This document shows positions 8,406-57,256 of a DNA stretch of 64,000 nucleotides, in pieces (position 1 is the stretch's first letter; each line of letters begins with the position of its first letter). The position numbers and the translations under genes were made by a program. The stretch lies in contig OZ024749.1 in assembly GCA_964016885.1 (NCBI GenBank), forward strand, positions 18,228,001 to 18,292,000. The letters run 5' to 3'. The notes under the pieces are model-generated. The model did no database searches, was not told where the DNA came from, and saw nothing but the letters and a program-made list of their open reading frames with translations. This stretch comes from Eledone cirrhosa (taxonomy: Eukaryota).

Positions 8406-9167
8406 CTAAAGAAATTATTTTTTCTCCCTTTCATCTAACTTATTCATGCTCATCTCACAATATATCCTTACTTACATTACTTTTGTTTTTTTAATAATAC
8501 ATATCAACATTTTCTTTCCATAGCACATATTATTAAACCCTTAAATATTATTCTTAATAGATATTAACAATTTCTTTTCATCGCACATATTATTAAACCC
8601 TTCAATATACAAACCTTAACTTTACATTATTTTTCTCTTCGTTAATTTTCAAATTCTTTTAATTTATATATTATCTTCCAACGGTTTTTCAACCTCTCTA
8701 TGTAAAACAATATATTTTTCTCAGTTATAAAAGCTATCTCTCTCTCTCTATCACCCATCTCTCCTCCTATCTAATCCTTCCTCATTATACCCCCCCTCCA
8801 CTTTTTACTCTCATCTCCTCCTCTATTTACTCTCATCTCCTCCTTTTTTTCATCTCGCCCTCCAAAAAACTTTTTCCCCAATATCACACATCAATCTAAA
8901 ACTACTTTTCATATGTTGATTTAAAACTGCACTATCCACAAGTGTTTTTAACCTTCATATCATGTCTTCCTATTTTATCTGATGAAAACACAAATGTTAT
9001 TGCATGATGATATTTGTTTTTGAAATGCGCATAATAAAATACATGGAACTCATTTAACCATATTTTGATCTTATATATTATGTATACTCCAGTCCTAAAA
9101 ACTGTAGAGTGCTTCTTATCCGATATCTGCATTGCTTTATTGTACTACAATAAAACTCACGTCCTAC

Positions 9168-9170
<3 letters not shown>
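8406..9170 (+). mobile_element. PLE family B 3' UTR/pLTR fragment
   Basis: Matches 38740-39470 and extends into sequence also found at 18540-18637. Confidence 0.9.
8972..9041 (+). ncRNA. Type I hammerhead ribozyme (family B)
   Basis: attttat CTGATGA aaacacaaat..atttgttttt GAAA tgcgca TA ataaaat. Stem III is the palindrome ATGCGCAT. Confidence 0.85.
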
Positions 9171-9262
<92 letters not shown>

Positions 9263-9275
9263 AATATATATAAAT

Positions 9276-9310
<35 letters not shown>

Positions 9311-9474
9311 AATATATATAATATATATATATATATAGTATACTAGGGAGAGGATCAGGGGTGTATAACACTCCACTTATCCAGCAGGCAGTATAAGGTT
9401 AGCTCGATGTCTGAGGACAGAGCCGTGATATAATAAATAACAAAGAACGCCTATAGCATATGCATATCTTTACT

Positions 9475-9520
9475 TGCTAACATTGTTTCATCCGCACTAT
9501 AAGTGGGACTCATCAGAGCA
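9475..9520 (-). ncRNA. Type I hammerhead ribozyme (family C, inverted arm)
   Basis: Reverse complement of 13425-13470. Confidence 0.85.
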
Positions 9521-10704
9521 TAAAGGTTAATTACATACCACACAAGCAATAACAAATCCAAGACATTGAAGAATGAAAAATAATAGAAGATAAAGGATAT
9601 TAAGGAAGTAAAAGTAAAAATAAAAATAAAAATAAAAATAAAAGTAAAAATAAAAATAATAAAATAAACCATGAAAAATAAGGGGTGCTATCAGTCACAG
9701 TTGGGCGGGGTGCTGTCAACATATAGTTACATACAAGCATACACATGGATAAGAGAACAGACAAGAGTAGATAAGATAGATAGGATTAGGTAAGAGTAGG
9801 TAAAAAATAGGTGAAAAACAGACTTATAATATATATAAGAAAATATAAAAAAATATAACAAACATACATATAAAATATAAAATATACAGATAATAGTGAT
9901 ACAGGGTAAGGAATGAAATAAAATAATATAAAATTAAAATTAAAATTATATAAAATAGAACATAATATAATATAATCATAAAATAAGATAAAATAAGGTA
10001 AACTAAAATAAAATAAAATAGACTAAAGTAAAATAATATAATATAAGATATAATTAAATGTAATTAAATAAATAAATAAATAAATAGAATTAAATAAATA
10101 AATAAAATTAAAATTAAAATTAAATAAATAAATAAATAAATAAATAAGTAAATAAATAAATAAATGAAATTAAATAAATAAATAAATAAAATTAAATAAA
10201 ATGAAATGAAATAAAATAAAATAAAATAAAGTAAATTGAGATAAGATATATATTTTTTAGAGTATATCTCTTGAATACATCAGGGGCCCACGAAGGCACT
10301 AAGTGTCACAGTTATCTGTATCACTTGACCATTTTTTTAGAATATATTTCTTGAAAATATCAGGGGCCCACGAAGGCACTAAGTGTCACAGTCACCAGTA
10401 TCACTTGACCATTGCAAGGCAATGGAGGCGTCCTAGGTTGGGCAGTCTCAAAAGTTCACTCGAAAGTCACGGGTGTGCATTCACACAGTTGAGCGGTGGG
10501 GTAATCACAAACCGGTTCACACCCGGGCAGGAGTCCAATGGTCAAACAGAGGTACATCGAAGGAAGGTAGGAGAATTCACGTGCAGTAGCAAGAGGCCGA
10601 AAGCAAGGTGCAGGCGGGTTAGCCAAAGCAAGCAGACACAGTTGGAGCGCATACAAAAGATATATAAAAAGACAAAAGATATATAAAAAATAGCTTCAAG
10701 AGCC

Positions 10705-11304
10705 ATGAAGTCACCGTATTCTACAACCCAAAATCTGGCCTCTCATCTGGCCATTACTAATAATAAGAAAATAAAGGAAGGCCTGGACAACCTAAGCCTA
10801 GGGGAAAACACGGTAGTGGACAGAGTGGGCCGAAACACAAGTGGTGATCATTCTGAGAATAGCATCACCAGAAGTTGTAACTGTAGAAGGGCTTCAGGCT
10901 GCCCCCTGAATGGTTTCTGCCTTGTTAGAAACATAGTTTATGCGTGTGATGTGGTAACTACGGCGTCCACTAAAACCTATATAGGATCAACCTCCACCCC
11001 CTTTAAGACCAGGTTTAACTCTCACCAGTGCACTTTTAGACATAATAAACTGAGGAACTCCACCTCCTTGGCAGCGTACGTCCACAATTTAAAAAATGCA
11101 CGAACACATTACACACTTACTTGGCGGCAGGTTGCTAAATCCCATCCATATACTCCTCATAATAGAGTATGTAACCTATGCCTTGCCGAATCCCACTCTA
11201 TTATATTTGCTAAATGCCCTCTACTAAATAGAAAGTCAGAAATATTTTCCTCTTGCCCCCACCGAATATTAAGCTCTTTCTTCTACTTTAAACCTATTAG
11301 CTAG
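10705..11304 (+). pseudogene. GIY-YIG endonuclease domain of family C (5'-truncated)
   Basis: YSTT.NL, CNCRRASGCPLNGFCL, IVYAC..YIGSTS, CNLCLAE, LLNRKSE. Confidence 0.9.
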
Positions 11305-12799
11305 CACTTCCTTATTTCTCCAGTTGGGCTATCTTGTGTAACTGTCTCTGATTGTGTGTAACAGTCTCCTATTGTTTGTCTTCTATGTATATGAGTCGGT
11401 GAGTGTATACGTATGCCTGCGGGAGGATATTGATCTGGATATTGGGGTGTACAGGTGAGTGGGTGTGTATGTTAATAAGCACCCCTGTTTGGCACAGCGG
11501 ATGTAACCCATCCACGCTCGCCTACCCACCATTGGTGCATTGGTGGGTCTATCCTGACGTGTATCTTGTGGATCTGTACCTCTGTATGCGCATGAGTTGT
11601 GATGTAATGTATCTATGTAGAGCGTGTACTGTGATATAGGCTGCACTAATAGAAATTTAGCCTGTAACTGTGGGCGGACCTGTGCCATCCCGCCGTAAGC
11701 AGTAGATACGTGGCGCATGTACGTGTTGCCCTCCTATTCTGTGGTTTAAGATCTACAGGCTGACTTCTGGGAGCTCTTGCCCGGGGTTGTAGTCTTTCTA
11801 GCACGATCGGCCTTCCATATATTGACGGTCGTTGTTATGATCCCGAAAGTAACGTTTTGGCCCCGATAGCCCTCCGTAGTTACTAACGGTCTGTGTACAC
11901 TTAAATCGGGCAATGGCACGTGCGGACATGATTATCTCCGTAGGAATTCAATTTTATTTTACTACATCTCATCGTATGTATTTATTTTGAATGTATTATC
12001 CGTGGTGGTGGGTCTTGCCTAATGTGGTATTTCTGTGTTTAATATCAGCTTTGACCCGGGTGTCCTACGCTGTGTGTGTGTGCGTGTGTGTCTGTGTATA
12101 CATTTATATGTGTATGGGTGTAGGTGGTTGTATATGTCTGTATATAAAAAAATATATATATATGTATACCGTCTCTGCATATGCATGTGGTGTGTATATG
12201 TGCATATACGGCTGAACATATTGGTGTGTATAATCTTGTGATGTCCCAATGCGGTGACTTCATGGCTCTTGAAGCTATTTTTTATATATCTTTTGTCTTT
12301 TTATAAATCTTTTGTATGCGCTCCAACTGTGTCTGCTTGCTTTGGCTAACCCGCCTGCACCTTGCTTTCGGCCTCTTGCTACTGCACGTGAATTCTCCGT
12401 TTGACCATTGGACTCCTGCCCGGGTGTGAACCGGTTTGTGATTACCCCACCGCTCAACTGTGTGAATGCACACCCGTGACTTTCGAGTGAACTTTTGAGA
12501 CTGCCCAGCCTGGGACGCCTCCATTGCCTTGCAATGGTCAAGTGATACTGGTGACTGTGACACTTAGTGCCTTCGTGGGCCCCTGATATTTTCAAGAAAT
12601 ATATTCTAAAAAAATGGTCAAGTGATACAGATAACTGTGACACTTAGTGCCTTCGTGGGCCCCTGATGTATTCAAGAGATATACTCTAAAAAAATATATA
12701 TCTTATCTCAATTTACTTTATTTTATTTTATTTTATTTCATTTCATTTTATTTAATTTTATTTATTTATTTATTTAATTTCATTTATTTATTTATTTAC

Positions 12800-12831
<32 letters not shown>

Positions 12832-13424
12832 TTTTAATTTTAATTTTATTTATTTATTTAATTCTATTTATTTATTTATTTATTTAATTACATTTAATTA
12901 TATCTTATATTATATTATTTTACTTTAGTCTATTTTATTTTATTTTAGTTTACCTTATTTTATCTTATTTTATGATTATATTATATTATGTTCTATTTTA
13001 TATAATTTTAATTTTAATTTTATATTATTTTATTTCATTCCTTACCCTGTATCACTATTATCTGTATATTTTATATTTTATATGTATGTTTGTTATATTT
13101 TTTTATATTTTCTTATATATATTATAAGTCTGTTTTTCACCTATTTTTTACCTACTCTTACCTAATCCTATCTATCTTATCTACTCTTGTCTGTTCTCTT
13201 ATCCATGTGTATGCTTGTATGTAACTATATGTTGACAGCACCCCGCCCAACTGTGACTGATAGCACCCCTTATTTTTCATGGTTTATTTTATTATTTTTA
13301 TTTTTACTTTTATTTTTATTTTTATTTTTACTTTTACTTCCTTAATATCCTTTATCTTCTATTATTTTTCATTCTTCAATGTCTTGGATTTGTTATTGCT
13401 TGTGTGGTATCTAATTAACCTTTA

Positions 13425-13470
13425 TGCTCTGATGAGTCCCACTTATAGTGCGGATGAAACAATGTTAGCA
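13425..13470 (+). ncRNA. Type I hammerhead ribozyme (family C)
   Basis: tgct CTGATGA gtcc cac ttata gtg c ggat GAAA caatg TT agca. Confidence 0.85.
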
Positions 13471-13559
13471 AGTAAAGATATGCATATGCTATAGGCGTTC
13501 TTTGTTATTTATTATATTATATTATTATATATATATATATATATATATATTAATATATG

Positions 13560-13633
13560 TATGTGTGTGTATGTATCTATGTATATGTATGTATGTACAT
13601 ATATGTCTATGTATGTGTGTATGTATGTGTATG

Positions 13634-13690
<57 letters not shown>

Positions 13691-13899
13691 TTATTTTATT
13701 TTTTTTATATATATGTGTGTGTGTGTATGTGTGTGTGTGTGTCTATATATATCTTTGTATATGTATATGTGTATGTTCGTGTAGGTATATGTGTGTGTAT
13801 GACTATGTATGTATGTGTATGTGTGTATGTGTGTGTATATGTATATCTATGTGTGTGTACATGTATGTATGTATATGTATGTGTATATGTGTATGTGTG

Positions 13900-16793: not shown

Positions 16794-16836
<43 letters not shown>

Positions 16837-16916
16837 CGTGACTATCTCCCCCTCCGCCTTTTGGGATTCTTTCTCACGTCGTGTAGACGCGTTCTTGAGA
16901 CTAGTAAAATGAGGTA

Positions 16917-17006
16917 TCCTCTTGATAAGTCGGCAGACCTCGCAGGGACTCTATATCTTTATGATATATTGTTTTTGTTTATGCGACGAAACTACGTAGT
17001 CGAGGA
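16917..17006 (+). ncRNA. Hammerhead ribozyme, U3-A8 core variant (family I)
   Basis: tcctc TTGATAA gtcg...cgac GAAA ctacgtag TC gagga. Stem III is the palindrome ACTACGTAGT. Confidence 0.78.
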
Positions 17007-17075
17007 ATTTAGGAGCAGTTTAGGTATGATACATTTTATTACTAATTATATCTAAATGTTTCTTCTCTCTTCATA

Positions 17076-17188
<113 letters not shown>

Positions 17189-17359
17189 TATATATATATA
17201 TATGCAAAAGTTTTATTTAAAATTTTGGGTTACAACAAGTAAATATTTGTTTAATATCGTATATATATATATATTTATATATAGATATATAGATATATAT
17301 TAATATATATATATATATTAATATATATATATATAGATATATATACATATAGATATATA

Positions 17360-17431
<72 letters not shown>

Positions 17432-17603
17432 TATATATCTATATGTATATATATCTATATATATATATATTAATATATATATATATATTAATATATATCT
17501 ATATATCTATATATATATATATATATATATACGATATTAAACAAATATTTACTTGTTGTAACCCAAAAATTTTAAATAGAACTTTTGCATATATATATAT
17601 GTA

Positions 17604-17680
<77 letters not shown>

Positions 17681-17749
17681 TATGAAGAGAGAAGAAACAT
17701 TTAGATATAATTAGTAATAAAATGTATCATACCTAAATTGCTCCTAAAT

Positions 17750-17839
17750 TCCTCGACTACGTAGTTTCGTCGCATAAACAAAAACAATATATCATAAAGA
17801 TATAGAGTCCCTGCGAGGTCTGCCGACTTATCAAGAGGA
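17750..17839 (-). ncRNA. Hammerhead ribozyme, U3-A8 core variant (family I, second copy)
   Basis: Reverse complement of 16917-17006. Confidence 0.78.
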
Positions 17840-18231
17840 TACCTCATTTTACTAGTCTCAAGAACGCGTCTACACGACGTGAGAAAGAATCCCAAAAGGC
17901 GGAGGGGGAGATAGTCACGCGATATAACGGTCGAGAAACAGAGCTAAGCCTCTTATAACCACGAAGAAAATACCACGGAGGCGGAGGGGGTATTCATATC
18001 GAGGCCGCAGAAGAGGTGGTGAAGAAGGCTAGAAGTATGAGTAATGGAAGCTTTCCAGTTGTCCCCACACTTCAAAGATTGCTCGACCACTGGTTCAGTC
18101 TAGTTCAACTGAATTGGTCTGTCCCGGTCATTCATTGAGCAACATCGGTGAAGTCGGCACCCTTAACTCACAGTTGGGTGCGGATGCATTCATGTATATA
18201 TGTGTGTGTCCGCATGTATCTGTGTTTCTAA

Positions 18232-18264
<33 letters not shown>

Positions 18265-22929: not shown

Positions 22930-23102
22930 GAAAAGTGTAATTTACTACACAAAACGAAGGTTATAGAGAAAATTGAGGTTGGTAAAGTATTCTGTCTCTA
23001 ATATATTCCATGTGCCATTACCAACCTCAATTTTCTCTATAACCTTCGTTTTGTGTAGTAAATTACACTTTTCATATATACTAACCTACGCAAATCCGGA
23101 AA

Positions 23103-24308
23103 ATGGCACTGGAACAAGACAACACAACTTCAAACTCCAATATAAATGAGGAAATCCTGAAAATCCTAAAAGAGATAAATGGAAAACTCACCATTCTGAC
23201 AAAAAAACAAGATATACCCCAAACCACCACACCGACTGACAACCAAATTTATTTAAACGTTCAAAACGTATGCAACTTCATCGAAAAACTTATGAATACC
23301 AACACAGAACAGACGACATTGCTCCATATCAAAAACCAAATGGGACACCTCTGGAAAAAACATCTAAAAACCAGAAAATTCACTTTCTGGAATATGATAA
23401 AAAACCTCAACAAAGCTGGAATTTACCAAAAATGGATTAACTCAACACCGATAGTTTTACCACGTAAATTCCAAATAAAGCATATTACAAACGAACCTGA
23501 ACCAGAAAGAAAACTCCGTGAACAAATGTCACTCAACAGGATAAACATGGAAATAGAACTCCTAAAATTAAGGGCCACCTCCAACGAGCAAGAGTATAAG
23601 GATACTGATAAAAATATGGAGGAAGAATGCACTAAAAAGGCCGAGGGAACAACCCTACAAAATTTAATCAAATCGTGGAAACAGGACTGCGAGAATGCAG
23701 AAATTATTTCCCTTAAACGGTGGGAAAAATCCGAAAACTGGTTTCTCAAATATGAAGAAGACTTTAAAAGGACGCACCAAACAGGTAACCCCTTTATAAA
23801 GCATCTGAACATAACAAGAACTACAACAGACACATTTACACCACCAAACCCAACACACACTAACCACAGGCACATCCCCCACCAACACAAACCAAATACG
23901 GCCAACTACACCAAAAGAAACACACCCAACCACCACAACACAGGTTTCCGAAGAAATGCCCCCTACATAAACCAACGACGAATTAACATAGATCCAACTC
24001 ACAACACATACACCACATTCCTCAGAAGAAATCCACCAGACCACTTGAAATCACAACAGAACTTACCCACAACCACACCAGACATCACCCTCAATCCAAC
24101 AAAAGACAACCCCCCAACCTCAACACTCTGTACCACAGAAATAACGCACCCAGACCACATGAACCAACAACAGAACCCTTGCTCATCAACAACCACAACA
24201 CATACCACCCCCACCATCACATTCACCCTCATGAAACAACAAGCTACAGACCCACACGCAACAGACCAACAAAATATAATCACACACAAAACTACATTCC
24301 TTTTTTAG
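23103..24308 (+). CDS. ORF1 / N-terminal region of family G (predicted helical N-part, Thr/Asn/Pro-rich linker), 401 aa
   Basis: Uninterrupted ATG-started ORF directly downstream of the 5' pLTR. Overlaps the RT ORF, which is in the -1 frame. Confidence 0.7.
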   Translation: MALEQDNTTSNSNINEEILKILKEINGKLTILTKKQDIPQTTTPTDNQIYLNVQNVCNFIEKLMNTNTEQTTLLHIKNQMGHLWKKHLKTRKFTFWNMIKNLNKAGIYQKWINSTPIVLPRKFQIKHITNEPEPERKLREQMSLNRINMEIELLKLRATSNEQEYKDTDKNMEEECTKKAEGTTLQNLIKSWKQDCENAEIISLKRWEKSENWFLKYEEDFKRTHQTGNPFIKHLNITRTTTDTFTPPNPTHTNHRHIPHQHKPNTANYTKRNTPNHHNTGFRRNAPYINQRRINIDPTHNTYTTFLRRNPPDHLKSQQNLPTTTPDITLNPTKDNPPTSTLCTTEITHPDHMNQQQNPCSSTTTTHTTPTITFTLMKQQATDPHATDQQNIITHKTTFLF

Positions 24309-26547
24309 GGAAAAGCCTGAAATACCAGGATACTCGATGCCCCCCCCCCCAGGAGAAACCAAAAATAATCAACCTCTCAAAGACACCTCTAACCAACACA
24401 CAAATCAACATTTTAAGTAAGGGCCTGAAATTTACACCTACACCACGTAAACCAAACTTCCCCGAAATGAAGGATGACATCATGGAATACTGCCGAAAGC
24501 TGCCACTAACGGAATTCTTCCACAACGACACCAACACTGAAGACGAATCACTGGTTAGAAATAAAAGCAATTTCTGCCCACAAAAGGGAAGAAATAAAGC
24601 ACTGGACACGTACTGCGAACACATCACCAACTTTCCCTATGAAAAAATTACAAATAAACACACGAAATCAAACCTATCTACACACGAATGGGAAGAATTA
24701 TTCACACTTAGAAACAACCCTGAGATAACTATCAAAGAAGCCGATAAAGGCAGTACTGTTGTCATTATGAATACGGACTACTATAGGACCCTCGCACTTA
24801 ACATTTTAGAAAACAACACATACTATGAAAAAACAGAAAACTACAAACACACCAAAACAATGGGGAACCTTTTGACCTTACTGAATAAATACCGCAACAG
24901 CTTAACCACAAAAGAGTTTAACTATATAAGCCACTTCAAATGCAATACAAACTCTTTTTACAGCTTACCGAAACTCCACAAATGTAAACCCATAAACGAT
25001 GCATGTGACACCTCAACCAACAATTACATTGAACTAACACCACCAGAAGACCTAAAACTCAGGCCAATTATAGCAGGCCCTACATGTGAAACCCACAGAC
25101 GTAGCAACTTTCTGGAAATCCTACTGAAACCCTTTCTACAACATATACAGAGCTACATACGAGATGACCTTGACATGCTGAAACACCTCCCTAAAACAGT
25201 AAGTGCAAATACAGTTCTTGTCTCCTTTGACGTAATAAACCTCTACACAAACATGCCCCACAACTATGGAATAACAGCAGTCCAATACTGGCTTAACACA
25301 CACCCATCAGAAATACCGACACGCATCAACACAGAATTTATCACTGACGGACTCCGCTTTATCCTACAAAATAACTACTTCACATTCAATGGTTCAACAT
25401 ACAGACAAGTATCAGGTACGGCAATGGGCACGAAAGTAGCACCCACATATGCCAACCTAGTCATGGGATTCCATGAACAACAAATATACAGTCAGTCCCT
25501 TCTCTTATTTGGAGACTATTTCCACATACACCTCAAAGCCAATTGGAAAAGATATCTAGACGACTGCTTTATCCTATGGCAAGAAGACATGAACTCACTT
25601 ACTACGTTTAAAAACATGATAAACAACATAGATAATAACATACAATTCACAATGGAATCCAATCCCAAGGAATTAGCCTTCTTGGATATTCTCATCTCTG
25701 TAATAGACGGGAAATTAGATACAGATATATTCTATAAACCCACAGATTCCAAGCAATACCTCTTTTTCACATCAAGTCACCCAAAACATACAAAACTTAA
25801 CATTCCTTACAATTTGGCCAAACGTATATGTACCATAGTATCAGATCCACCTAAACGGGAGCAAAGACTAAAGGAACTAAAAGAACCTTTCCAGTTGAAA
25901 TAATCAACAATGGAATAGACAGAGCAAAACACCTAAATCCCCATCAACTTAACAATCCAAAACAGAAAACCACACTCAACACCCTGCCATATGTATCCAC
26001 TTTCAACCCCAGAAATACCGAAATGTTTGATCACCTACACAAAAACCTCCCCATCCTACTTAAAGATGTAAAAATGAAGTCTATTCTTGAAACACACAAG
26101 ATCCTTAAAAGTAAAAGACAACCCAAATCACTAAAACGCATTCTCACTGGACCAAATATACCCAAACCAATCCTCAACCCTACAGTTACCAAATGTGGTA
26201 GAACAAACTGTTGAACGTGCCTCTACCTCACTGAAGGACAAACATTTACATTCAAAGATGGCCAAACATTTACAGTAAAAAACAATTTCACCTGCAACTC
26301 GGAGAACTTGATTTACGCAATAACTTGCGGTGGGTGCAAACACAACTACATAGGACAGACGGGCACCTCATTACGCAAAAGAATGACCATCCACCACCAA
26401 CAAATCCGGGACGCTAACACAAGAAAAATCCCCTTGAGCAGCCATATTGCGAACTGCGCAAGAATGACACTACCCAACTTTAAAATCTTCCCCGTCTACA
26501 AGTGCTCAGATTCGTTCACACAGCAACAAAGAAAATCTATTCCTTAA
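24299..26547 (+). pseudogene. RT + Cys linker + GIY-YIG endonuclease (family G)
   Basis: INLS, LSKGLKF, EADKG, LPKLHK, LRPII, FDVINLYT, GTAMGT, KRYLDD, FLDI, CGRTNC.TC, LIYAITC..YIGQTG. Frameshift near 25890 and stop at 26212. Confidence 0.93.
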
Positions 26548-27417
26548 CAAATTTAAACCAAAACTAAACGGGTTATCACCCCAATAGAATTGTCATAAAA
26601 TATAAACACACATACGCACGGAGTGACAGATATAAGTGTTTGTATGTGTGCATGTATATAAGTATCACTACTATTAAAGACCAGAGACCAATTCTGTAGA
26701 ATCAGGTTTATTCGTTGACAGACCATGCCTTTGTGTGACCAACACATCCATGTTAAACCCTGCACGTGCACACACATATATCTATATATATATGCGCACA
26801 CAGAATTCACCACTGTCGGTTGCGGGGCCCAATCTACATGAAGAACTCAATGTGATCAGAATGACTTGTATTTTAATTTCACTGTCCTAACTTCTTATAT
26901 TATGGAAAAAATATATGTGTATGTATGTATATATATATATTTGGAGGCCATTTCTCTGTGTGTGGGTGTATGTATGTGTATATGTGTGTGTGTGTGTGTA
27001 TGTGTGTGCATGTGGATGTATGTATTGTGTGTGCGTGTGTGTGTGTGTGTATGTATGTGTGTATCTGGATGTATGCGTATGTGTATATATATATATGTGT
27101 GTGTGTGTATATATATGTGTGTGTATGTGTATATATGTGTGTGTGTGTGTTTGTATGTGTGTATGTATATATATGTGTGTGTGTGTATGTATGTGTGGGT
27201 GTGTGTATATATATATATGTATGTATATGTGTGTATATATGTGTATGTACACATATATATATATATGTGTGTGTGTGTATGTATGTGTGTATCTGGATGT
27301 ATGTGTATGTATGTATATATATATGTGTGTGTGTGTATATATATATATGTGTGTGTATGTGCATATATGTGTGTGTGTATGTGTGTATGTATATGTATGT
27401 GTGTGTATGTATGTGTG

Positions 27418-27500
<83 letters not shown>

Positions 27501-27861
27501 ATGTATATGTATATGTATGTATGTGTGGATGAAGGTATGTGTGTATATATAGGTGTAAGTGCACTAAATCCCTTTCTATCAATCTCCCCTCTCCTACCGA
27601 CCACAGCGAGATATATGTATGTATATTGCTTCCACCCCCTCACTGACTAGCAGCTGGCCATCTGGCCATTGCTAAATCTGACCTTTATAAAATAACCCAC
27701 ACCCCAAATAACTTCTCATTCACTACCAGAAAGGCACACAGCAGTCAACTTGCAGCTACCAAGATGAAAACTAATATGAAATCCCACAATGAATTTTATA
27801 CTTGAATTTTCAAATCTCAAATTTTAACTCCTCTTATTATTAATTTTTCTTAATATTAATC

Positions 27862-27911
27862 AACATTTGAAAAGATGGCTTTTGCAGACCCATCGAAACC
27901 GGTCATTTGTT
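27862..27911 (+). ncRNA. Hammerhead ribozyme, U3-A8 core variant (family G)
   Basis: aacat TTGAAAA gatgg cttttgcagac ccatc GAAA ccgg TC atttgtt. Stem III is the palindrome ACCGGT. Confidence 0.75.
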
Positions 27912-28025
27912 ATACCCTTTATTATTTCCTTACCTTATAAAATTATATGTTTTTTCACAAAAAAGTATTCTGTCTCTTATATATTCCATGTGCCATTACC
28001 AACCTCAATTTTCTCTCTCTCTCTC

Positions 28026-28073
<48 letters not shown>

Positions 28074-29007: not shown

Positions 29008-30969
29008 TTAATTGTAAGTTGTGATGTTGCTGTTCCACTCATATTTTCTATTTAATTTTGGTTGTAATTCTTTTATGTTTATTGCCTCTGTGATTTGTCT
29101 AAACATTGCGTCTTTTCTGTGTGTAGATTCTATTTTTATTTCTATGTTCTCTAATTTACCCTTGTGTTCTATTTTAGCATGTTGGTAGAGTACAGATGAT
29201 TCTTTACTATCTTGAAGGTCTCGCCAGTGTTCATTTATCCGTTCCCCTACACTACGAGCTGTCTCACCTATGTACACTATATTTTTGTCTCTACATTGTC
29301 CTTCAGTACATCTTATGCTATACACTACATTTCTAGTTTTACAGTTAATATGGGGGCTTATTTTACAGGTTATACATTTCTTATCTATACATGAGGGTCT
29401 TTGAAAAGGGTATGTCTTGCTAATAAGTGTTTTTACGGGGGTACCTGGTCTTTCTACTATCTTAATATTGAGTTTATGTTTATCTAGGGCCCTTCTAAAT
29501 TTGTAAGCTAATTCACCTCTAGGGGTTGTATCGATGAACATTACACTCTGGTATTTATTGCTATCATACCATGAGTTTATTCTATTAGCCTTGTTCCTAG
29601 TTCTTTCTATTCTATTCCAAAATTTGCTCCTATACAAGGGGCAGGTCCCATTTATGTCATTATTTACCATTTTTTCCCATTTGGTTCTGGCTCCTCTATA
29701 CACTCTGATTTTATCTCCCTGATTGTAGCCAGAGAACTGCATACGGTGGATGAAGTGTTGTATGTGTCTCTCTAGTTCTTCGGGGTTGCACATGCGGGAC
29801 ACGTTTCTCATCACCCGTACCAAATCCGCAATCAGTATGTTGATTTTGGTATGGTCCGAAACGGCCGAGTTTCGGTGGATCAGATGTTTGGAAGTCATGG
29901 GTTTGGCATAATGGGAATGGAGGATTTGTTTTATGTTATTAATGGTATCTAACCAGAGCTCTGTGTCTAGTACAGGTAATCGATGGTTGGGGTGTTTACT
30001 TGGGTAGTCTATAGTAACTCTAATGCTCTGGTGGATGGAGTTAGCTATTTGCTGGATGCTTTCCATTGTGTTTTTCTCTAGTTCCTGACTGTTCTCTAGT
30101 GGGGGTGTCTTAACTACGATATTTATATCATCAACGTAGCGGGAGTACATTATCAGGGTTAAGGGGTCTTCTAATTGTTCTTTAAGTCTACTGTCCCACC
30201 ATACCATGAATAAGTTAGCTATGTCGCCTGCAATGCTAACACCAATGGCTGCTCCTTCCTCTTGGGCATATGTTTTTCCATTAAATTTGAACATATGTTC
30301 CTTAAGGGTTAGTTTTATGCTGGCCCCTACCGCATGTGCAATAATTTTCTTCAGTTCATCGTGGTTTTCGGGTGTCCGTATGGCTCTGGTCCACCCGTTC
30401 CATCTATCTGTGTGGGTTTTCTTGGCCATTGAGGTAATGGTAGGTGGTCTGCCTCTTGCTGGTCTTGTAGGGCACAGGTTGCTAAGGTCATATGTGTCTA
30501 GGTAATTATTACTATAGGTAAGTTTAAGTAGGAGTCCCAGCTCACTGGTATCAATCCCACGGAACTCAACATTGCGCTCACTGATCATTTCTACGAATTT
30601 CTCCACAGCAAAATCCACGTCAATGGATGGATACAGGGACACAACATCCATACTACCTATTATGCAGTTTGCTAGGTCCCTAGATCGGTTACTCTCGCCG
30701 ATTCTACTGAGGAGGTCCTCCGTGCTGTCACATACATCTGGGGACATTTCAATGATGGGGCGTATGATCAGGGAGAGGAAGTAGGACAGTCTGTAGTTAC
30801 TAGCAATGTTAGCTCCACAGACTGGCCGTGTTGGTGGTCCCGCGACAGGGTCACTGCCCGTTTTATGGTCTTTTCGAAGCCCATACAACGCCGGCACGTC
30901 ATTGTTCCAGGCCTGGAAGTTGTTGGCAGTCCTTTTGTTGGGCTGCATTATATTCGTCCACATCACCAT
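29008..30969 (-). CDS. PLE RT + GIY-YIG endonuclease (family A), 653 aa open segment, N-terminally truncated
   Basis: LYGLRKDHK, TRPV, SMDVVSLYPS, GAAIG, RYVDD, LPVLD, C..C..C, VVYSIRC..YIGETAR, EAINI..PKLN. Confidence 0.9.
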   Translation of the reverse strand: MVMWTNIMQPNKRTANNFQAWNNDVPALYGLRKDHKTGSDPVAGPPTRPVCGANIASNYRLSYFLSLIIRPIIEMSPDVCDSTEDLLSRIGESNRSRDLANCIIGSMDVVSLYPSIDVDFAVEKFVEMISERNVEFRGIDTSELGLLLKLTYSNNYLDTYDLSNLCPTRPARGRPPTITSMAKKTHTDRWNGWTRAIRTPENHDELKKIIAHAVGASIKLTLKEHMFKFNGKTYAQEEGAAIGVSIAGDIANLFMVWWDSRLKEQLEDPLTLIMYSRYVDDINIVVKTPPLENSQELEKNTMESIQQIANSIHQSIRVTIDYPSKHPNHRLPVLDTELWLDTINNIKQILHSHYAKPMTSKHLIHRNSAVSDHTKINILIADLVRVMRNVSRMCNPEELERHIQHFIHRMQFSGYNQGDKIRVYRGARTKWEKMVNNDINGTCPLYRSKFWNRIERTRNKANRINSWYDSNKYQSVMFIDTTPRGELAYKFRRALDKHKLNIKIVERPGTPVKTLISKTYPFQRPSCIDKKCITCKISPHINCKTRNVVYSIRCTEGQCRDKNIVYIGETARSVGERINEHWRDLQDSKESSVLYQHAKIEHKGKLENIEIKIESTHRKDAMFRQITEAINIKELQPKLNRKYEWNSNITTYN

Positions 30970-31414
30970 ATGGGCATTGAGGGCTTTTTCTCTACCCTCG
31001 TGCTACTGTGGTGTTACCTCTCTTGTGTTAGTGATGTGGGGTTGCATTGCCTGGATGTGGTTTGGCAGGCTGTCAACCGACATTCTGCCAGACTTGTCTG
31101 TTGGAAAGCATGCTATCTCTCCATTACGCGAGCGCTGCATGAGCTTAGGCAAGCCATTTGCAGAATTAAATAGAAAATATGAGTGGAACAGCAACATCAC
31201 AACTTACAATTAAGGACAAAATGAAAACACACACACACATAGAACAAACAACCAATCAGTAACATGTGAATAAACAAATAAATTAATTAACATAAACACA
31301 CACAGACACCCGGATGTGGCCCATGCGCAGACTGAGAACACAACACACACACAGAAACAAAATGGCGTAGGACAGACCAAAGGAGAGGCACAGAAACAAA
31401 GAAAGGAATCCCCA

Positions 31415-31714: not shown

Positions 31715-34700
31715 ATGTTCTGTTGTCTACGAAAACCCATAACATCTCGACAACTACACTTCAGAAAAGAATGTGCCTCGTGCCGAGTTTACACCAACAC
31801 CATCAACACCGACGTAAGAAGATTACAACTCACCAAAAAACAAGCAGATAGGCTAAAACGAACACTAATTCTAAACATAAAAAAGAAGATCTATTGAGAA
31901 CTAAGTCATCAAGAAAAACATACAAGAAATAGCTAGGATCACTACACCAAGAGAGAAACTAATATTTATAAGCCTTATACGTCCCGAAGAACAGTACATT
32001 ACTCAAGAATGTGATAAGCACTTTAACAAGAAACTAAAGTGGCTTAAGCAGATAAAGCTAAATCAGGATACTGTAGAGAATACCAATAGATATCCCGACA
32101 AAATTGACGGTATAAATATTGCCGACACCTCATTAACAGATGAGTTCAACAACAACAACAACACAAATATATACGGCAACACAGTAATAGATGACGATGA
32201 GTTATCTATATTACGTCTACCCCCGAAATTTGCGACATTCAAGAAGGTAAATATGATTAGTTGTCTGTCAGAAATAGAAAAATCATTTACAAAACTACGC
32301 TGGAGCCTCAAAAACAAAAACAAAAACAAAAGCAACAATATACGCACACACATATACAACACACATCCCAACAACAACAGACACACAGACACAAACAACA
32401 ATAACAACAACACACACACCAACAACAACACACACACCAACAACAACAACAATAATAACATACCCAGAAACAACAGACACGCAGACACAAACAACAATAA
32501 CAACACACACAACAATAATAACATACACGGAGACAACAACAACACATATCAACAACAGCACACATCAACAACAACAACACACACACATTCAATGCCTCTC
32601 ACCACCACCACAATCTTAACAAACACACAGACACAGAAAACAAGTAATGACAGTAGCACAGAAATCACAGAAGTAAGGGAAAGTAATAGGATTAAAAGGA
32701 GAAGGGAGACTAAGGACAAAGAAAATAACCAAGACGAACACACAGACACACAAAATAGGGTAGATAACAACAATGAGCCAGTGGAAAGAGACAGGAGTAA
32801 TTATGAGAGACATAGAAACAACCATGAGGCTGTTGGTGGAAATAGAAATAGAAACAACACAACTAACAATAACAATAGCACTAGTACACATAAAGCAGCA
32901 GCCTGGAACTCTACTTTTTATAATCCCTCCGATAAATCGTTCGACCTGCGACGAGTCCACGCCACGACTTTACCATTTAACAAACGCACGCAATTGCCGG
33001 CGCAGGTCGATGAACAAACAGAAGCACAATTTAGTATAGCTAGATCCGAACTTAGAAATATTATAGAACAGTATAGCAAAAAGCAAAAAGCATAATAGAA
33101 TGAAGGCCCAGCAACTGGGAGAAAAATCTGCAAATGGCTTGCGTAAGCTCATGCAGCGCTCGCGTAATGGAGAGATAGCATGCTTTCCAACAGACAAGTC
33201 TGGCAGAATGTCGGTTGACAGCCTGCCAAACCACATCCAGGCAATGCAACCCCACATCACTAACACAAGAGAGGTAACACCACAGTAGCACGAGGATAGA
33301 GAAAAAGCCCTCAATGCCCATATGGTGATGTGGACGAATATAATGCAGCCCAGCAAAAGGACTGCCAACAACTTCCAGGCCTGGAACAATGACGTGCCGG
33401 CGTTGTATGGGCTTCGAAATGACCATAAAACGGGCAGTGACCCTGTCGCGGGACCACCAACACGGCCAGTCTGTGGAGCTAATAACTACAGACTGTCCTA
33501 CTTCCTCTCCCTGATCATACGCCCCATCATTGAAATGTCCCCAGATGTATGTGACAGCACGGAGGACCTCCTCAGTAGAATCGGCGAGAGTAACCGATCT
33601 AGGGACCTAGCAAACTGCATAATAGGTAGTATGGATGTTGTGTCCCTGTATCCATCTATTGACGTGGATTTTGCTGTGGAGAAATGCGTAGAAATGATCA
33701 GTGAGCGCAATGTTGAGTTCCGTGGGATTGATACCAGTGAGCTGGGACTCCTACTTAAACTTACCTATACTAATAATTACCTAGACACATATGACCTTAG
33801 CAACCTGTGCCCTACAAGACCAGCAAGAGGCAGACCACCTACCATTACCTCAATGGCCAAGAAAACCCACACAGATAGATGAAACGGGTGGACCAGAGCC
33901 ATACGGACACCCGAAAACCACGATGAACTGAAGAAAATGATTGCACATGCGGTAGGGGCCAGCATAAAACTAACCCTTAAGGAACATATGTTCAAATTTA
34001 ATGGAAAAACATATGCCCAAGAGGAAGGAGCAGCCATTGGTGTTAGCATTGCAGGCGACATAGCTAACTTATTCATGGTATGGTGGGACAGTAGACTTAA
34101 ACTTAAACTTAAAGAACAATTAGAAGACCCCTTAACCCTGATAATGTACTCCCGCTACGTTGATGATATAAACATCGTAGTTAAGACACCCCCACTAGAG
34201 AACAGTCAGGAACTAGAGAAAAACACAATGGAAAGCATCCAGCAAATAGCTAACTCCATCCACCAGAGCATTAGAGTTACTATAGACTACCCAAGTAAAC
34301 ACCCCAACCATCGATTACCTGTACTAGACACAGAGCTCTGGTTAGATACCATTAATAACATAAAACAAATCCTCCATTCCCATTATGCCAAACCCATGAC
34401 TTCCAAACATCTGATCCACCGAAACTCGGCCGTTTCGGACCATACCAAAATCAACATACTGATTGCAGATTTGGTACGGGTGATGAGAAACGTGTCCCGC
34501 ATGTGCAACCCCGAAGAACTAGAGAGACACATACAACACTTCATCCACCGTATGCAGTTCTCTGGCTACAATCAGAGAGATAAAATCAGAGTGTATAGAG
34601 GAGCCAGAACCAAATGGGAAAAAATGGTAAATAATGACATAAATGGGACCTGCCCCTTGTATAGGAGCAAATTTTGGAATAGAATAGAAAGAACTAGGAA

Positions 34701-35286
34701 CAAGGCTAATAGAATAAACTCATGGTATGATAGCAATAAATACCAGAGTGTAATGTTCATCGATACAACCCCTAGAGGTGAATTAGCTTACAAATTTAGA
34801 AGGGCCCTAGATAAACATAAACTCAATATTAAGATAGTAGAAAGACCAGGTACCCCCGTAAAAACACTTATTAGCAAGACATACCCTTTTCAAAGACCCT
34901 CATGTATAGATAAGAAATGTATAACCTGTAAAATAAGCCCCCATATTAACTGTAAAACTAGAAATGTAGTGTATAGCATAAGATGTACTGAAGGACAACG
35001 TAGAGACAAAAATATAGTGTACATAGGTGAGACAGCTCGTAGTGTAGGGGAACGGATAAATGAACACTGGCGAGACCTTCAAGATAGTAAAGAATCATCT
35101 GTACTCTACCAACATGCTAAAATAGAACACAAGGGTAAATTAGAGAACATAGAAATATAAATAGAATCTACACACAGAAAAGACGCAATGTTTAGACAAA
35201 TCACAGAAGCAATAAACATAAAAGAATTACAACCAAAATTAAATAGAAAATATGAGTGGAACAGCAACATCACAACTTACAATTAA
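31715..35286 (+). pseudogene. Family A polyprotein (N-terminus, Asn/Thr/His low-complexity insert, RT, EN), disrupted
   Basis: Stops at 31895, 33093, 33286, 33880 and 35158, frameshift near 33095, PTDKSG motif. Otherwise matches the 653 aa ORF. Confidence 0.92.
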
Positions 35287-39926: not shown

Positions 39927-40211
39927 CAAATAACGAAACGAAATTAAATTTCGTTTCGCTTCTCACTCACTTTTGTATGACTGACGCTTAAACAATTAAG
40001 TTAAAGTGTACATCTACATATGTATACGGAAGTATTAGTATGCATATAAATACACACATGTATACATATGTACATGTACTCAGCTTTTCACTAGACACTT
40101 TACAGTGAGTGTCAGCTAGTCTGTATGTAACCACACAGGCGGACCGGGCTTTAGAGTCATACGAGTTTTCAAGGAAACACATTTCCTCAATTCTCCAGAG
40201 GGCCAGGCAGG

Positions 40212-40256
40212 AATATTGGACTAGTTTCGATGTTATTACATCTCATCAGCAATATT
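40212..40256 (-). ncRNA. Type I hammerhead ribozyme (family E)
   Basis: Reverse complement of 40574-40618. Confidence 0.92.
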
Positions 40257-40573
40257 TACCCATCTTCCGGCTTCTCTGGAGAATTGTAAAAGCACATATT
40301 GTTATATGCTTTTTCTATGAAAATTAGTAGTGGGTAGACTAATTTGCATAGAACGTGAGTCATTGTACGCACCGGTTCAGCGGAAACGATAAAAACAAAT
40401 AACGAAACGAAATTTAATTTCGTTTCGTTATTTGTTTTTATCGTTTCCGCTGAACCGGTGCGTACAATGACTGACGTTCTATGCAAATTAGTCTACCCAC
40501 TACTAATTTTCATAGAAAAAGCATATAACAATATGTGCTTTTACAATTCTCCAGAGAAGCCGGAAGATGGGTA

Positions 40574-40618
40574 AATATTGCTGATGAGATGTAATAACAT
40601 CGAAACTAGTCCAATATT
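40574..40618 (+). ncRNA. Type I hammerhead ribozyme (family E)
   Basis: aatattg CTGATGA gatgt aata acatc GAAA ctag TC caatatt. All stems perfect, GUC site. Confidence 0.93.
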
Positions 40619-40830
40619 CCTGTCTGGCCCTCTGGAGAATAGAGGAAATGTGTTTCCTTGAAAACTCGTATGACTCTAAAACCCGGTCCGCCTGTGTGGT
40701 TACATACAGACTAGCTGACACTCACTGTAAAGTGTCTAGTGAAAAGCTGAGTACATGTACATATGTATACATGTGTGTATTTATATGCATACTAATACTT
40801 CCGTATACATATGTAGATGTACACTTTAAC

Positions 40831-40888
<58 letters not shown>

Positions 40889-40903: not shown

Positions 40904-40954
40904 AGCTTCTACATGACTAGTACTGTTTCATTCAGATGAAATCTTCAGGAAGCT
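40904..40954 (-). ncRNA. Type I hammerhead ribozyme (family D, 3' pLTR)
   Basis: agcttc CTGAAGA t ttca tc tgaa t GAAA cagtactagtcatg TA gaagct. Confidence 0.8.
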
Positions 40955-54909: not shown

Positions 54910-56974
54910 CCCTGACCCCACCCTGTCCCGCACATGGCTGCCCCGCTGGCGAATAGGGTGCTCTTGAGTGACCCCGGCCCCATTGATGCCTCGGCTCCCC
55001 ACTTGCCGATGGGGACTCTGGTGAGGAACAGTCGATCCTGTGTCCCACTTGCCAAAGTGGGATTGGTGGCAGCATTGTTGCTGGGCGCTCTGGGGGCCGC
55101 TGATGCCTGCGGTGTGGGATACTGAGAGTGCCTGGACCCACATTGCCTGGTCTGAGGGTGTACCGTCGAGGATACACATCAACAAATTCGGGAATTTGCC
55201 CAAGGGAACAGTAGTGGAACACCCAATGTGGCGGCCGTTCCCTGCCTATTACCAATTTGACCAGTCGCGTGTGAACTTGGAATTGGTGAGAGGAGGGGAT
55301 AATAGCGAGAGACGTAATATACCACCCCAGTCAAGTCCATACTGGACATTTTTACCAATATATCATGTACACCAATATATCCTATACAGCAAAACCTTGG
55401 ATTTAGAACCGACAGGCTGATCTATCGCGAACGCGTGCGATCCCACGCAAGGATTAATAACTGGCACGACCGAAACTACATGGAAAAGATTGAACGGACC
55501 ACACCCTGCGACCACTAGCTGTTTGATCCGCGGGTCCATCTCCCAGAGAGGGCACACAGCTGATAGTGAATCCCAGTTGACTCGTGAACTCGGAACTTTT
55601 CAACAAGACCAACTGTGTCTGGAGCTACGCAGATGATTGCATGCGCACAATGGATATCGCACCTACAAGGTCACCGGTATTGTTCATCTTACTGTATTTG
55701 TGTAAAGTATCCGTGTGTGGGATATCCCTGAGTAAATTTGCTTGACTGTTAATTGTTTATTAATTGTTTGTTAATTAGGCAGGAATATATTATTATATCT
55801 TTGTTAATCCTATATTAATAATTTTTTGATAATACATTATTAGATTACTGAAGCTATTTAATACCTTCTTAAAAATACATTTTATAATTATTGTCTTTTT
55901 GCTTATATATTTTCTTACTTATCATTTTCTTTAATCTTCGAGCCCAACTTGATAAGCTCTTTGAATTGCTCCTTAATTAGATTACTTAAATTACTTTATT
56001 TATTATACCTAAGTTGCTGTATCTGTTGAAGCAACCCTTTGGAAATTCCTCGAATCTCCCAAATCCCGTAATTTTTAATTTGAAATTTTCCTTCATTTAT
56101 ATATATTTTTAAAGGTTCTCTAAAATTTTAATTCTTTGAAGGGTCTTTCGGAAGAGGTTTTTATTAAAAATATTAAAGGGTCCTTTTCTGAGGGATTTTT
56201 TGAAGCCTTTTTGAATTAACCTTTAATTGATTAATTTCTCTCAACTATTTATTTCTTAATTTTTAAAATTAAATGTAATGTCCAACCTCTTAATCTTTAA
56301 TTTTTAATCTTGGATATATAAGATTGCTTAATCTTAAATTCATTAATTTTTTTAATTTCTGGGTTTGGAACTCTTAAACTTCAAATCCTAATTTAAATCT
56401 TAATCTTTATATTATGGATTCCCTAAATTATTAACTTTATTAACCTCTTAAATCTTATTGAAAGTTTTTTTCGCTTATTTTTAATTTTTAACTTTTAATT
56501 TTTAATTTTTGATTTTTGAGCTTAGAACTTTCGTAGAGATTATTAAATCTTCGTAAATTTTCTTAAATTTTTTAAGGGAATTTCTTATAAAAATTTTTTT
56601 GAAGGAATTTTTTAAGGAGACTTTTTATTTTTTTACTCTCTTAATCTCCTCTGGTTTTTAAAGTTTATTGAGGCTTATAAGCTTTATGCGCTTATTGAGG
56701 GATTTTTTAAGGTGCTTTTGAGAGATCCCAAGTCTTGTACTTTTAATGCGTAACTTATAAATTCCTTAATTTTTAACCTTCAATCCCTAACTTGTAGGCC
56801 CTTTTCAAATTCTCTTAATTCCCTATAACCCATCCCTCTTACAACTCCTACAACTATTATAAAAGAGCCCCCTTAGAATATAGACCCCAAGCTGAGCTGT
56901 TGATGTATACCACGATTTCAAACTGCTAATCTTGAGGGAAACGTTGATGAAAATAATGAACTTACAATTACCTG

Positions 56975-57030
56975 TTATATGCCTTGAAAAGTCCCACCAT
57001 ATGGTCGGACGAAACGGCTGTCGGCAATAA
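56975..57030 (+). ncRNA. Hammerhead ribozyme, U3-A8 core variant (family K)
   Basis: tgcc TTGAAAA gtcc c acca ta tggt c ggac GAAA cggctg TC ggca. Confidence 0.82.
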
Positions 57031-57092
57031 ACTTGTTATAATGTCATAAAAGTTCCTTTGTTCTTTTTCCTTAATATTTCTGCTCTGCATAA

Positions 57093-57153
57093 GCGACGGT
57101 AGCTAGTTAAGCTCTATGCGTATAACGCATAGAGCTTAACTAGCTACCGTCGC
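57093..57153. repeat. Perfect ~29 bp hairpin
   Basis: gcgacggtagctagttaagctctatgcgt ata acgcatagagcttaactagctaccgtcgc. Confidence 0.95.
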
Positions 57154-57256
57154 ATATGTGGTAGGTCTGGCGTGATCATCGTGATTTACGTACGACCTAC
57201 CATACATCTTGCTTATATATAAATATATATATATATATAAAGATAAATATATATAT

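Follow-up and report, generated by a model that had tools for sequence, protein, structure and literature searches.

Recurrent U3-A8 hammerhead cores in Penelope-like elements of Eledone cirrhosa and an amplified lineage with a mismatched core

The hammerhead motifs of several Penelope-like element (PLE) families in Eledone cirrhosa have U3-A8 instead of C3-G8 as the 3-8 pair of the core; the switch to this pair has recurred, and in one family (J) nearly half of the copies no longer have a Watson-Crick pair there at all. Judging from these sequences, we favour, with a probability of roughly 0.6, the reading that U3-A8 is a tolerated compensatory swap in a slow ribozyme under weak purifying selection, cleavage being dispensable for spread at least in J. 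The window (the whole stretch that was analysed, 64,000 nucleotides) sits in a 3.0-Gb genome and is dense in PLEs inserted into (TA)n. By their sequence, four sites in it are type I hammerhead motifs, placed in the terminal repeats of three PLE families (K, J and G) and in one non-coding tandem repeat (I). Residues are numbered in the established hammerhead scheme, and the dimer model used below is likewise established. The features are as follows.

56980..57026, plus strand: family K type I hammerhead motif, core UUGAAAA at 56984-56990, GAAA at 57011, GUC, predicted cut after 57022
52742..57219, plus strand: family K Hydra-clade PLE copy, frameshifted RT-endonuclease pieces at 52995-54906
49598..49693, minus strand: family J hammerhead motif, core UUGAGAA at 49688-49682, predicted cut after 49603
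49551..52741, minus strand: family J Hydra-clade PLE copy, frameshifted RT-endonuclease pieces at 52719-50783
27862..27911, plus strand: family G hammerhead motif, core UUGAAAA at 27867-27873, GUC, predicted cut after 27904
22984..28066, plus strand: family G Neptune-type PLE copy, upstream ORF at 23085-24308, RT and GIY-YIG pieces at 24280-26532
16917..17006, plus strand: family I hammerhead motif, core UUGAUAA at 16922-16928, predicted cut after 17001
17750..17839, minus strand: second family I hammerhead motif (inverted copy), core starting at 17834, predicted cut after 17755
16830..18240, both strands: family I insertion, partial unit at 16830-17081 (plus) and inverted unit at 18240-17675 (minus)

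The core positions given in the original prediction were all correct: TTGAAAA at 56984 (K) and 27867 (G), TTGATAA at 16922 and on the minus strand at 17834 (I), and TTGAGAA at 49688-49682 on the minus strand (J). Every site has the type I boxes (N3-UGA-N-N8-A, GAAA, A15.1-U16.1 and an NUH site, which is GUC in each), with GAAA and GUC downstream of all four core types, and the K, G, I and J copies of the window all have U3-A8 as their 3-8 Watson-Crick pair. The further claim that all have paired stems held only in part, since stem I of G is weak and the stem II helix of the window J copy is broken by a private change at 49676, a helix that the rest of the family keeps. Stem II of K is closed by G-C and its stem III is short; I has a long stem II and a palindromic stem III; J has a long stem II and a 6-bp stem III with a near-palindromic loop; and G has a 5-bp stem II, a palindromic CCGG stem III and a weak, bulged stem I. 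When the hammerhead was forced in predicted folds, all of them monomer folds, it lay above the best fold by 3.1 kcal/mol in K, 1.7 in I, 1.5 in a typical J copy, 6.0 in the window J copy and 13.2 in G (+4.6 against -8.6 kcal/mol). When the window was scanned with a descriptor, K (56984) and the two I copies (16922, and 17834 on the minus strand) were detected with three stems, plus several canonical C3-G8 motifs; J escaped owing to the internal loop of its stem II and G owing to its bulged, AU-rich stem I, and AU-rich motifs were under-scored. Rfam matched none of the four U3-A8 sites at E<=1, and in the window it returned only microRNA matches driven by (TA)n and a C3-G8 hammerhead pair (40197-40263 and 40563-40633) below the gathering score.

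K and J show the hallmarks of Hydra-clade PLEs, with tandem or inverted pseudo-LTRs and insertion at (TA)n, and 72 of 80 K motifs and 68 of 73 J motifs have (TA)5 no more than 400 nt from the cut. Read by eye (L151-L153, L156, L158 and L165), their proteins are single RT frames with an RWK-like motif, DKT, a CxCx5C linker and, at the C terminus, a GIY-YIG endonuclease without CCHH; the J frame of L158 is 710 aa long and has RWR, DKT and CxCx5C. The likeness to the Hydra clade of Craig et al. 2021 (PMC8557442) covers the RWR (RWK as published), DKT and linker motifs, the C-terminal GIY-YIG without CCHH, the (TA)n insertion and the hammerhead near the 3' end. J and K differ from that clade in their U3-A8 core, all hammerheads in its list being C3-G8, and in the distance between hammerheads, which is about 5.3-5.9 kb in K and about 3.1-3.6 kb in J, compared to the <3 kb stated there. 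The elements had been described as unrelated; J and K do fall in different subclades, but both are Hydra-clade. An assignment of the CxCx5C elements to Naiads was rejected, their endonuclease being C-terminal. The K hammerhead lies in the 3' pseudo-LTR, about 2.1 kb past the RT-endonuclease pieces, near-full K copies (L151-L153) have a hammerhead on both sides, and the matches listed fall into two subfamilies distinguished by position 7. Directly past the K hammerhead, in the tail region of the element, there is a 71-bp near-perfect palindrome (57088-57158). An inverted-repeat copy of a Hydra family closely related to K occupies 9165-13773 and has a K-like hammerhead with C3-G8 and a GUU site. 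L291, a relative of K at 73% in RT, has a C3-G8 motif upstream; the link from frame to motif was not closed, so L291 was left unlabelled.

The G hammerhead sits in the 3' repeat of a two-frame PLE. The Neptune hallmarks (DKG, a CX2-5CxxC linker and, at the C terminus, a GIY-YIG with CCHH) were found by eye in L161 and L163, and the 777-aa frame of L161 combines DKG, a Cx4CxxC linker and a C-terminal endonuclease; we call G Neptune-type on this reading of motifs rather than on a reference tree. Pfam gave no match for the K, J and G proteins. Another PLE family, with weak Pfam matches to RT and GIY-YIG, is present in the window as young inverted copies (29008-31002 and 33289-35283); its minimal hammerhead is C3-G8, and in it A9 is followed by an extra base.

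Family I is retrozyme-like as judged from its units, which are non-coding (longest ATG frame 75 aa), repeat in tandem with a period of about 591 bp (8 units in L168) and have one type I hammerhead apiece, as expected of non-LTR retrozymes. It resembles metazoan non-LTR retrozymes (PMC7229834, bioRxiv 10.64898/2026.07.22.740005) in these respects, in its GC content of 43% and in its thousands of copies, and differs from those described there in its 591-bp unit (about 170-400 nt in the published cases), its U3-A8 core and its long stem II. No parent element of I was found among the loci examined, where the Hydra frames beside I units start at unrelated points. A second retrozyme-like U3-A8 family forms a 316-bp tandem array (L284:477-2057) with a hammerhead in every unit, and a 13-unit array of 311 bp per unit (L190:6066-9777) has a canonical hammerhead in each.

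Family patterns with N at positions 3, 7 and 8 matched the genome 839 times for K, 2,086 times for G and 5,927 times for I, and the J pattern matched 1,930 times. The backward controls gave 0 matches, so these matches are not due to chance. Among the first 100 matches listed for each of three families, the core was U3-A8 in 99 of K (the other being U3-C8), 100 of G and 99 of I (the other being U3-G8); at least that many copies of each thus have it. As the original prediction held, U3-A8 is therefore the state of these families, the window copies of K, G and I are not decayed outliers, and single-copy decay was ruled out as the source of the core.

The same core had been called rare, a description that does not suit this genome. 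A genome-wide pattern with a short stem II, G10.1-C11.1 and C15.2-G16.2 matched 23,531 U3-A8 cores (2,972 in the backward control) and 5,449 C3-G8 cores (53), a ratio that is not that of the genome, because I, J and many C3-G8 families escape this pattern and the U3-A8 listing is taken up mostly by a single family. In 464 kb unselected for the four families we counted 32 C3-G8, 11 U3-A8 and 3 other motifs, with 3 in the reversed control. Mismatched cores under the short-stem pattern amounted to 283 C3·A8 (107 in the backward control) and 222 U3·G8 (226), which is about 1% of the number of paired cores; most of them are isolated copies from families whose core is paired, and the exception that we found to this scarcity is J. 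The expectation that searches based on CUGANGA miss U3-A8 cores was borne out, as the descriptors of PMC4209133 (fig. S7) and PMC8557442 use cuganga, and in this genome such searches alone would overlook over 30,000 motifs. The family that dominates the genome-wide listing (L243-L267, L296:6106) has a short stem II, a CCGG stem III and a GUA site; its motifs often stand in head-to-head pairs 50-150 bp apart, with a Neptune-like endonuclease about 1 kb upstream in L296. In a divergent Hydra-like family (L294:3977-6627, L292, L288) the hammerhead is mostly U3-A8, with sporadic C3·A8 copies, and lies about 300 nt past the endonuclease.

The switch to U3-A8 has more than one origin. In protein trees of proteins from this genome only, with some rows partial or long-branched and with roots and the C-G to U-A direction assumed by parsimony, K grouped with three C3-G8 families (support 97/96 and 100/97) and J paired with another C3-G8 family (89/100) inside a wider group supported at 100/100. 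An AU test rejected a single Hydra A8 clade (p 5.6e-47 on the quick tree, and 3.6e-08). With J and K each placed among C3-G8 families and one origin rejected, the switch recurred. A8 took three changes on the trees with G, J and K, and four with one further family, the starred branches alone forcing two in the four-change tree, although such counts cannot separate gain from loss. The claim that the same double change occurs in Neptune-type and Hydra-clade elements was thus supported, with at least three separate changes by parsimony. File S2 of PMC8557442 lists only C3-G8 hammerheads for Hydra elements, which favours C3-G8 as the ancestral state although a cuganga descriptor was used to compile it. 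Some of the U3-A8 set probably goes back to common descent instead of convergence, since other U3-A8 motifs with G-like flanks are close to Neptune-like frames. The C3-G8 label of the J sister family stands, because its own repeats carry CUGAAGA cores (read by eye at 40948 and 44904). A link between the sister frame (window 44643-42622) and the hammerhead at 40249 was ruled out; that motif belongs to an inverted pair of canonical CUGAUGA hammerheads (39994-40836), which elsewhere in the genome forms 469-bp tandem arrays and is retrozyme-like.

The U3-A8 core itself was known already, and no novelty can be claimed for it; the new members belong to additional PLE clades. Perreault et al. 2011 (PMC3088659) first reported natural covariation from C3-G8 to U3-A8, in scattered examples that the report does not follow through transposon families as is done here. 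Closer to our families are the Cercyon PLEs of Schistosoma mansoni (Cervera and de la Pena 2014, PMC4209133), with about 1,300 matches to U3-A8 minimal hammerheads, which share with them the covariant UUGAUAA/UUGAAAA core, the location in PLE pseudo-LTRs and the invisibility to a CUGANGA descriptor. In contrast to Cercyon as described there, stem III is present here (2-6 bp), no extra base follows A9, the motif is carried by a tandem non-coding unit as well as by Neptune-type and Hydra-clade elements, and we found several origins within one genome and more than 30,000 pattern matches.

Family J departs from the rest. The original prediction had proposed a YUGANRA-type search to learn whether U3-A8 is the family consensus, and had named frequent C3-A8 copies in advance as evidence against it; these are what J contains. 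Position 3 is C in 883 of its 1,930 matches, only 22 matches lack A8 (5 of them with C3), and the core is C3·A8 in 878, so that the 3-8 Watson-Crick pair is absent from these copies, C3-G8 in 2, U3-G8 in 10 and U3-A8 in at most 1,030. In a tree of the J 3' pseudo-LTR, made with the core columns masked, with the 44 of 79 copies that were long enough and with SH-aLRT values from a quick method, 17 CTGAGAA copies formed one branch (SH-aLRT 99) nested in the U3-A8 copies, with inner branches at 99, 95 and 96; one more C3 copy represents a separate mutation. Single J insertions have the C3·A8 hammerhead at both ends (L155, L157, L164, L165), and the C3·A8 allele accounts for 30-35% of the depth of short-read contigs from a single sample, which may be the assembled one. 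An assembly artefact was ruled out, the change being a substitution that defines a clade with linked changes and is seen in short-read contigs. Changes at position 8 are rarer in C3 copies (5/883) than in the others (17/1,047; p 0.03), which would suit a lineage of young age. At its very end (49607-49636 in the window, the 3' half of the hammerhead; also L039, L087, L088 and L020), the last ~50 nt of J are about 25x deeper in short-read contigs than the rest, tiny fragments of the J end occur in inverted clusters, and very short 5'-truncated J insertions may be extremely abundant. A search of sequencing runs with the J-K stretch listed no RNA run, which is evidence in neither direction.

By analogy, the mismatched J core is likely inactive; a natural CUGANAA hammerhead did not cleave (PMC8490949). 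Since nearly half of the J copies are mismatched and the lineage has spread nevertheless, self-cutting is likely not needed for J to jump, and we lean towards J being a natural knock-out in which the 3-8 pair was broken and cleavage lost, with several rounds of masters since then and about 880 copies left. Searches of the open-licence literature brought up no amplified C3·A8 family, and Lunse 2017 may already include such core variants.

The J RNA might instead still be cut, either in trans by a U3-A8 sister transcript through the self-complementary stem III, or in cis after a shift in register that pairs C3 with G7 and leaves a spare A ahead of G10.1. The near self-complementarity of J stem III and its loop, the similarly short end branches of both J subfamilies and the intact remainder of the hammerhead in the C3 lineage fit this alternative, as do the G7 found in 98 of the 100 first-listed C3 copies and the frequency of an extra base between positions 9 and 10.1 in PLE hammerheads. 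Nevertheless, we consider it unlikely: trans cleavage between rare transcripts is inefficient, G7 is merely the ancestral background of the C3 branch, we came across no report of a hammerhead tolerating the loss of position 7, and C3 mispairs in stem I, which puts the predicted hammerhead fold 4.0 instead of 1.5 kcal/mol above the best one.

As copies inherit the core of their master, copy counts alone do not demonstrate selection. Across 28 paired or core positions of the 3' half of the J hammerhead, 0 fixed changes separate the U3-A8 subfamilies where about 3.4 were expected (P 0.02-0.03); the 5' half was left out because the search pattern fixed it, and the reference was a repeat-rich upstream region whose rate is perhaps inflated. 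The flanks of the core differ as well: G10.1-C11.1 is found in 6 of 6 U3-A8 families and 8 of 22 C3-G8 clusters (p 0.016), and a GUC site in 4 of 6 and 2 of 22, respectively (p 0.01), in comparisons of few and related families to which G was added by hand and in which 9 of the 22 C3-G8 clusters are single-copy. It is as if the weaker U-A pair survived only inside an otherwise strong ribozyme, and these two weaker tests point to purifying selection.

The assertion that U3-A8 keeps activity is met by conflicting evidence. In vitro activity of covarying pairs is cited in PMC3088659, but when all pairs were scanned in one type III hammerhead, rescue came from the G:C swap alone and not from U3-A8 (PMC9901934). 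All U3-A8 motifs could then be vestigial, the fold being kept as a landmark for protein binding or RT and the U and A having arisen by AT-biased mutation of masters. Besides the scan in PMC9901934, this would suit the nature of the two changes, which are transitions from G/C to A/U in a genome rich in AT, and the finding that no RNA-seq reads ended at the cut site of the anole PLE (PMC11167929). However, independent loss would leave many U3·G8 or C3·A8 families, and such cores are about 1% of paired ones; moreover, the tandem retrozyme-like units (family I and the 316-bp array of L284) use U3-A8, and published retrozyme models require cleavage (PMC7229834). We regard this alternative as quite improbable.

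Insertions of every family run beyond the cut site. The ends lie 17 or 97 nt past it in J, 52 or 159 nt in K, and 55/156 and 53/155 nt in C3-G8 families (2 copies each). Two end points match the situation in the anole Poseidon element PAc (Frangieh et al. 2024, PMC11167929), where reverse transcription begins at two points 3' of the cut, the template in vitro is mainly uncut RNA, and single core mutants abolished cleavage and left insertion in vitro unaffected. Those mutants (C3G, G8C) were engineered and assayed in vitro, whereas the J lineage arose naturally and multiplied with its core mismatched. Since copying runs across the cut site in C3-G8 families too, uncut template persists irrespective of the core and does not require U3-A8, and the proposal that cleavage was tuned down so that uncleaved template survives is left unsupported. 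Positive selection of U3-A8 to slow cleavage and spare uncut template for reverse transcription would fit the repeated switches, the very high copy numbers of U3-A8 families, the use of uncut RNA in vitro (PMC11167929) and the J mismatch as an extension of the same trend, but it is the least probable of these readings, as C3-G8 families read through equally well and form most of the clusters found (22 versus 5 plus G), PLE hammerheads with C3-G8 are already slow or protein-assisted, and U3-A8 goes with the strongest flanking features, suggesting offset rather than net slowing.

If U3-A8 is a tolerated swap, as we prefer, the element would be transcribed through its tandem or inverted pseudo-LTRs, the hammerhead would fold and cut slowly after GUC, in K, G and I likely as dimers formed through the short or palindromic stem III, and reverse transcription would begin 3' of the cut on uncut RNA, so that a weak or dead core would be cheap in the short term. 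A single mismatch could then drift up for a while until a second change repaired the pair, which would explain the repeated switches from C-G to U-A, and weak purifying selection would retain a Watson-Crick pair in the long term. The mismatch in J is derived from U3-A8 and only 2 of its 883 C3 copies have C3-G8, so the repair step of this proposal is not seen in J. Against the tolerated swap, U3-A8 cores may be nearly inactive, given the scan in PMC9901934, and the undecayed state of the hammerhead in the C3·A8 lineage (0 changes in the rest of the motif versus about 2 expected, P 0.12) would also be expected under retained function.

The role of the PLE hammerhead is described as unclear in PMC8557442. 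If the reading of J as a natural knock-out is true, it would provide in vivo evolutionary evidence that PLE transposition does not need hammerhead cleavage, and J would reveal the mismatch state through which ribozyme cores may switch between C-G and U-A. Because this genome has matched sister families with C3-G8, U3-A8 and C3·A8 cores, the need for cleavage is testable with natural sequences.
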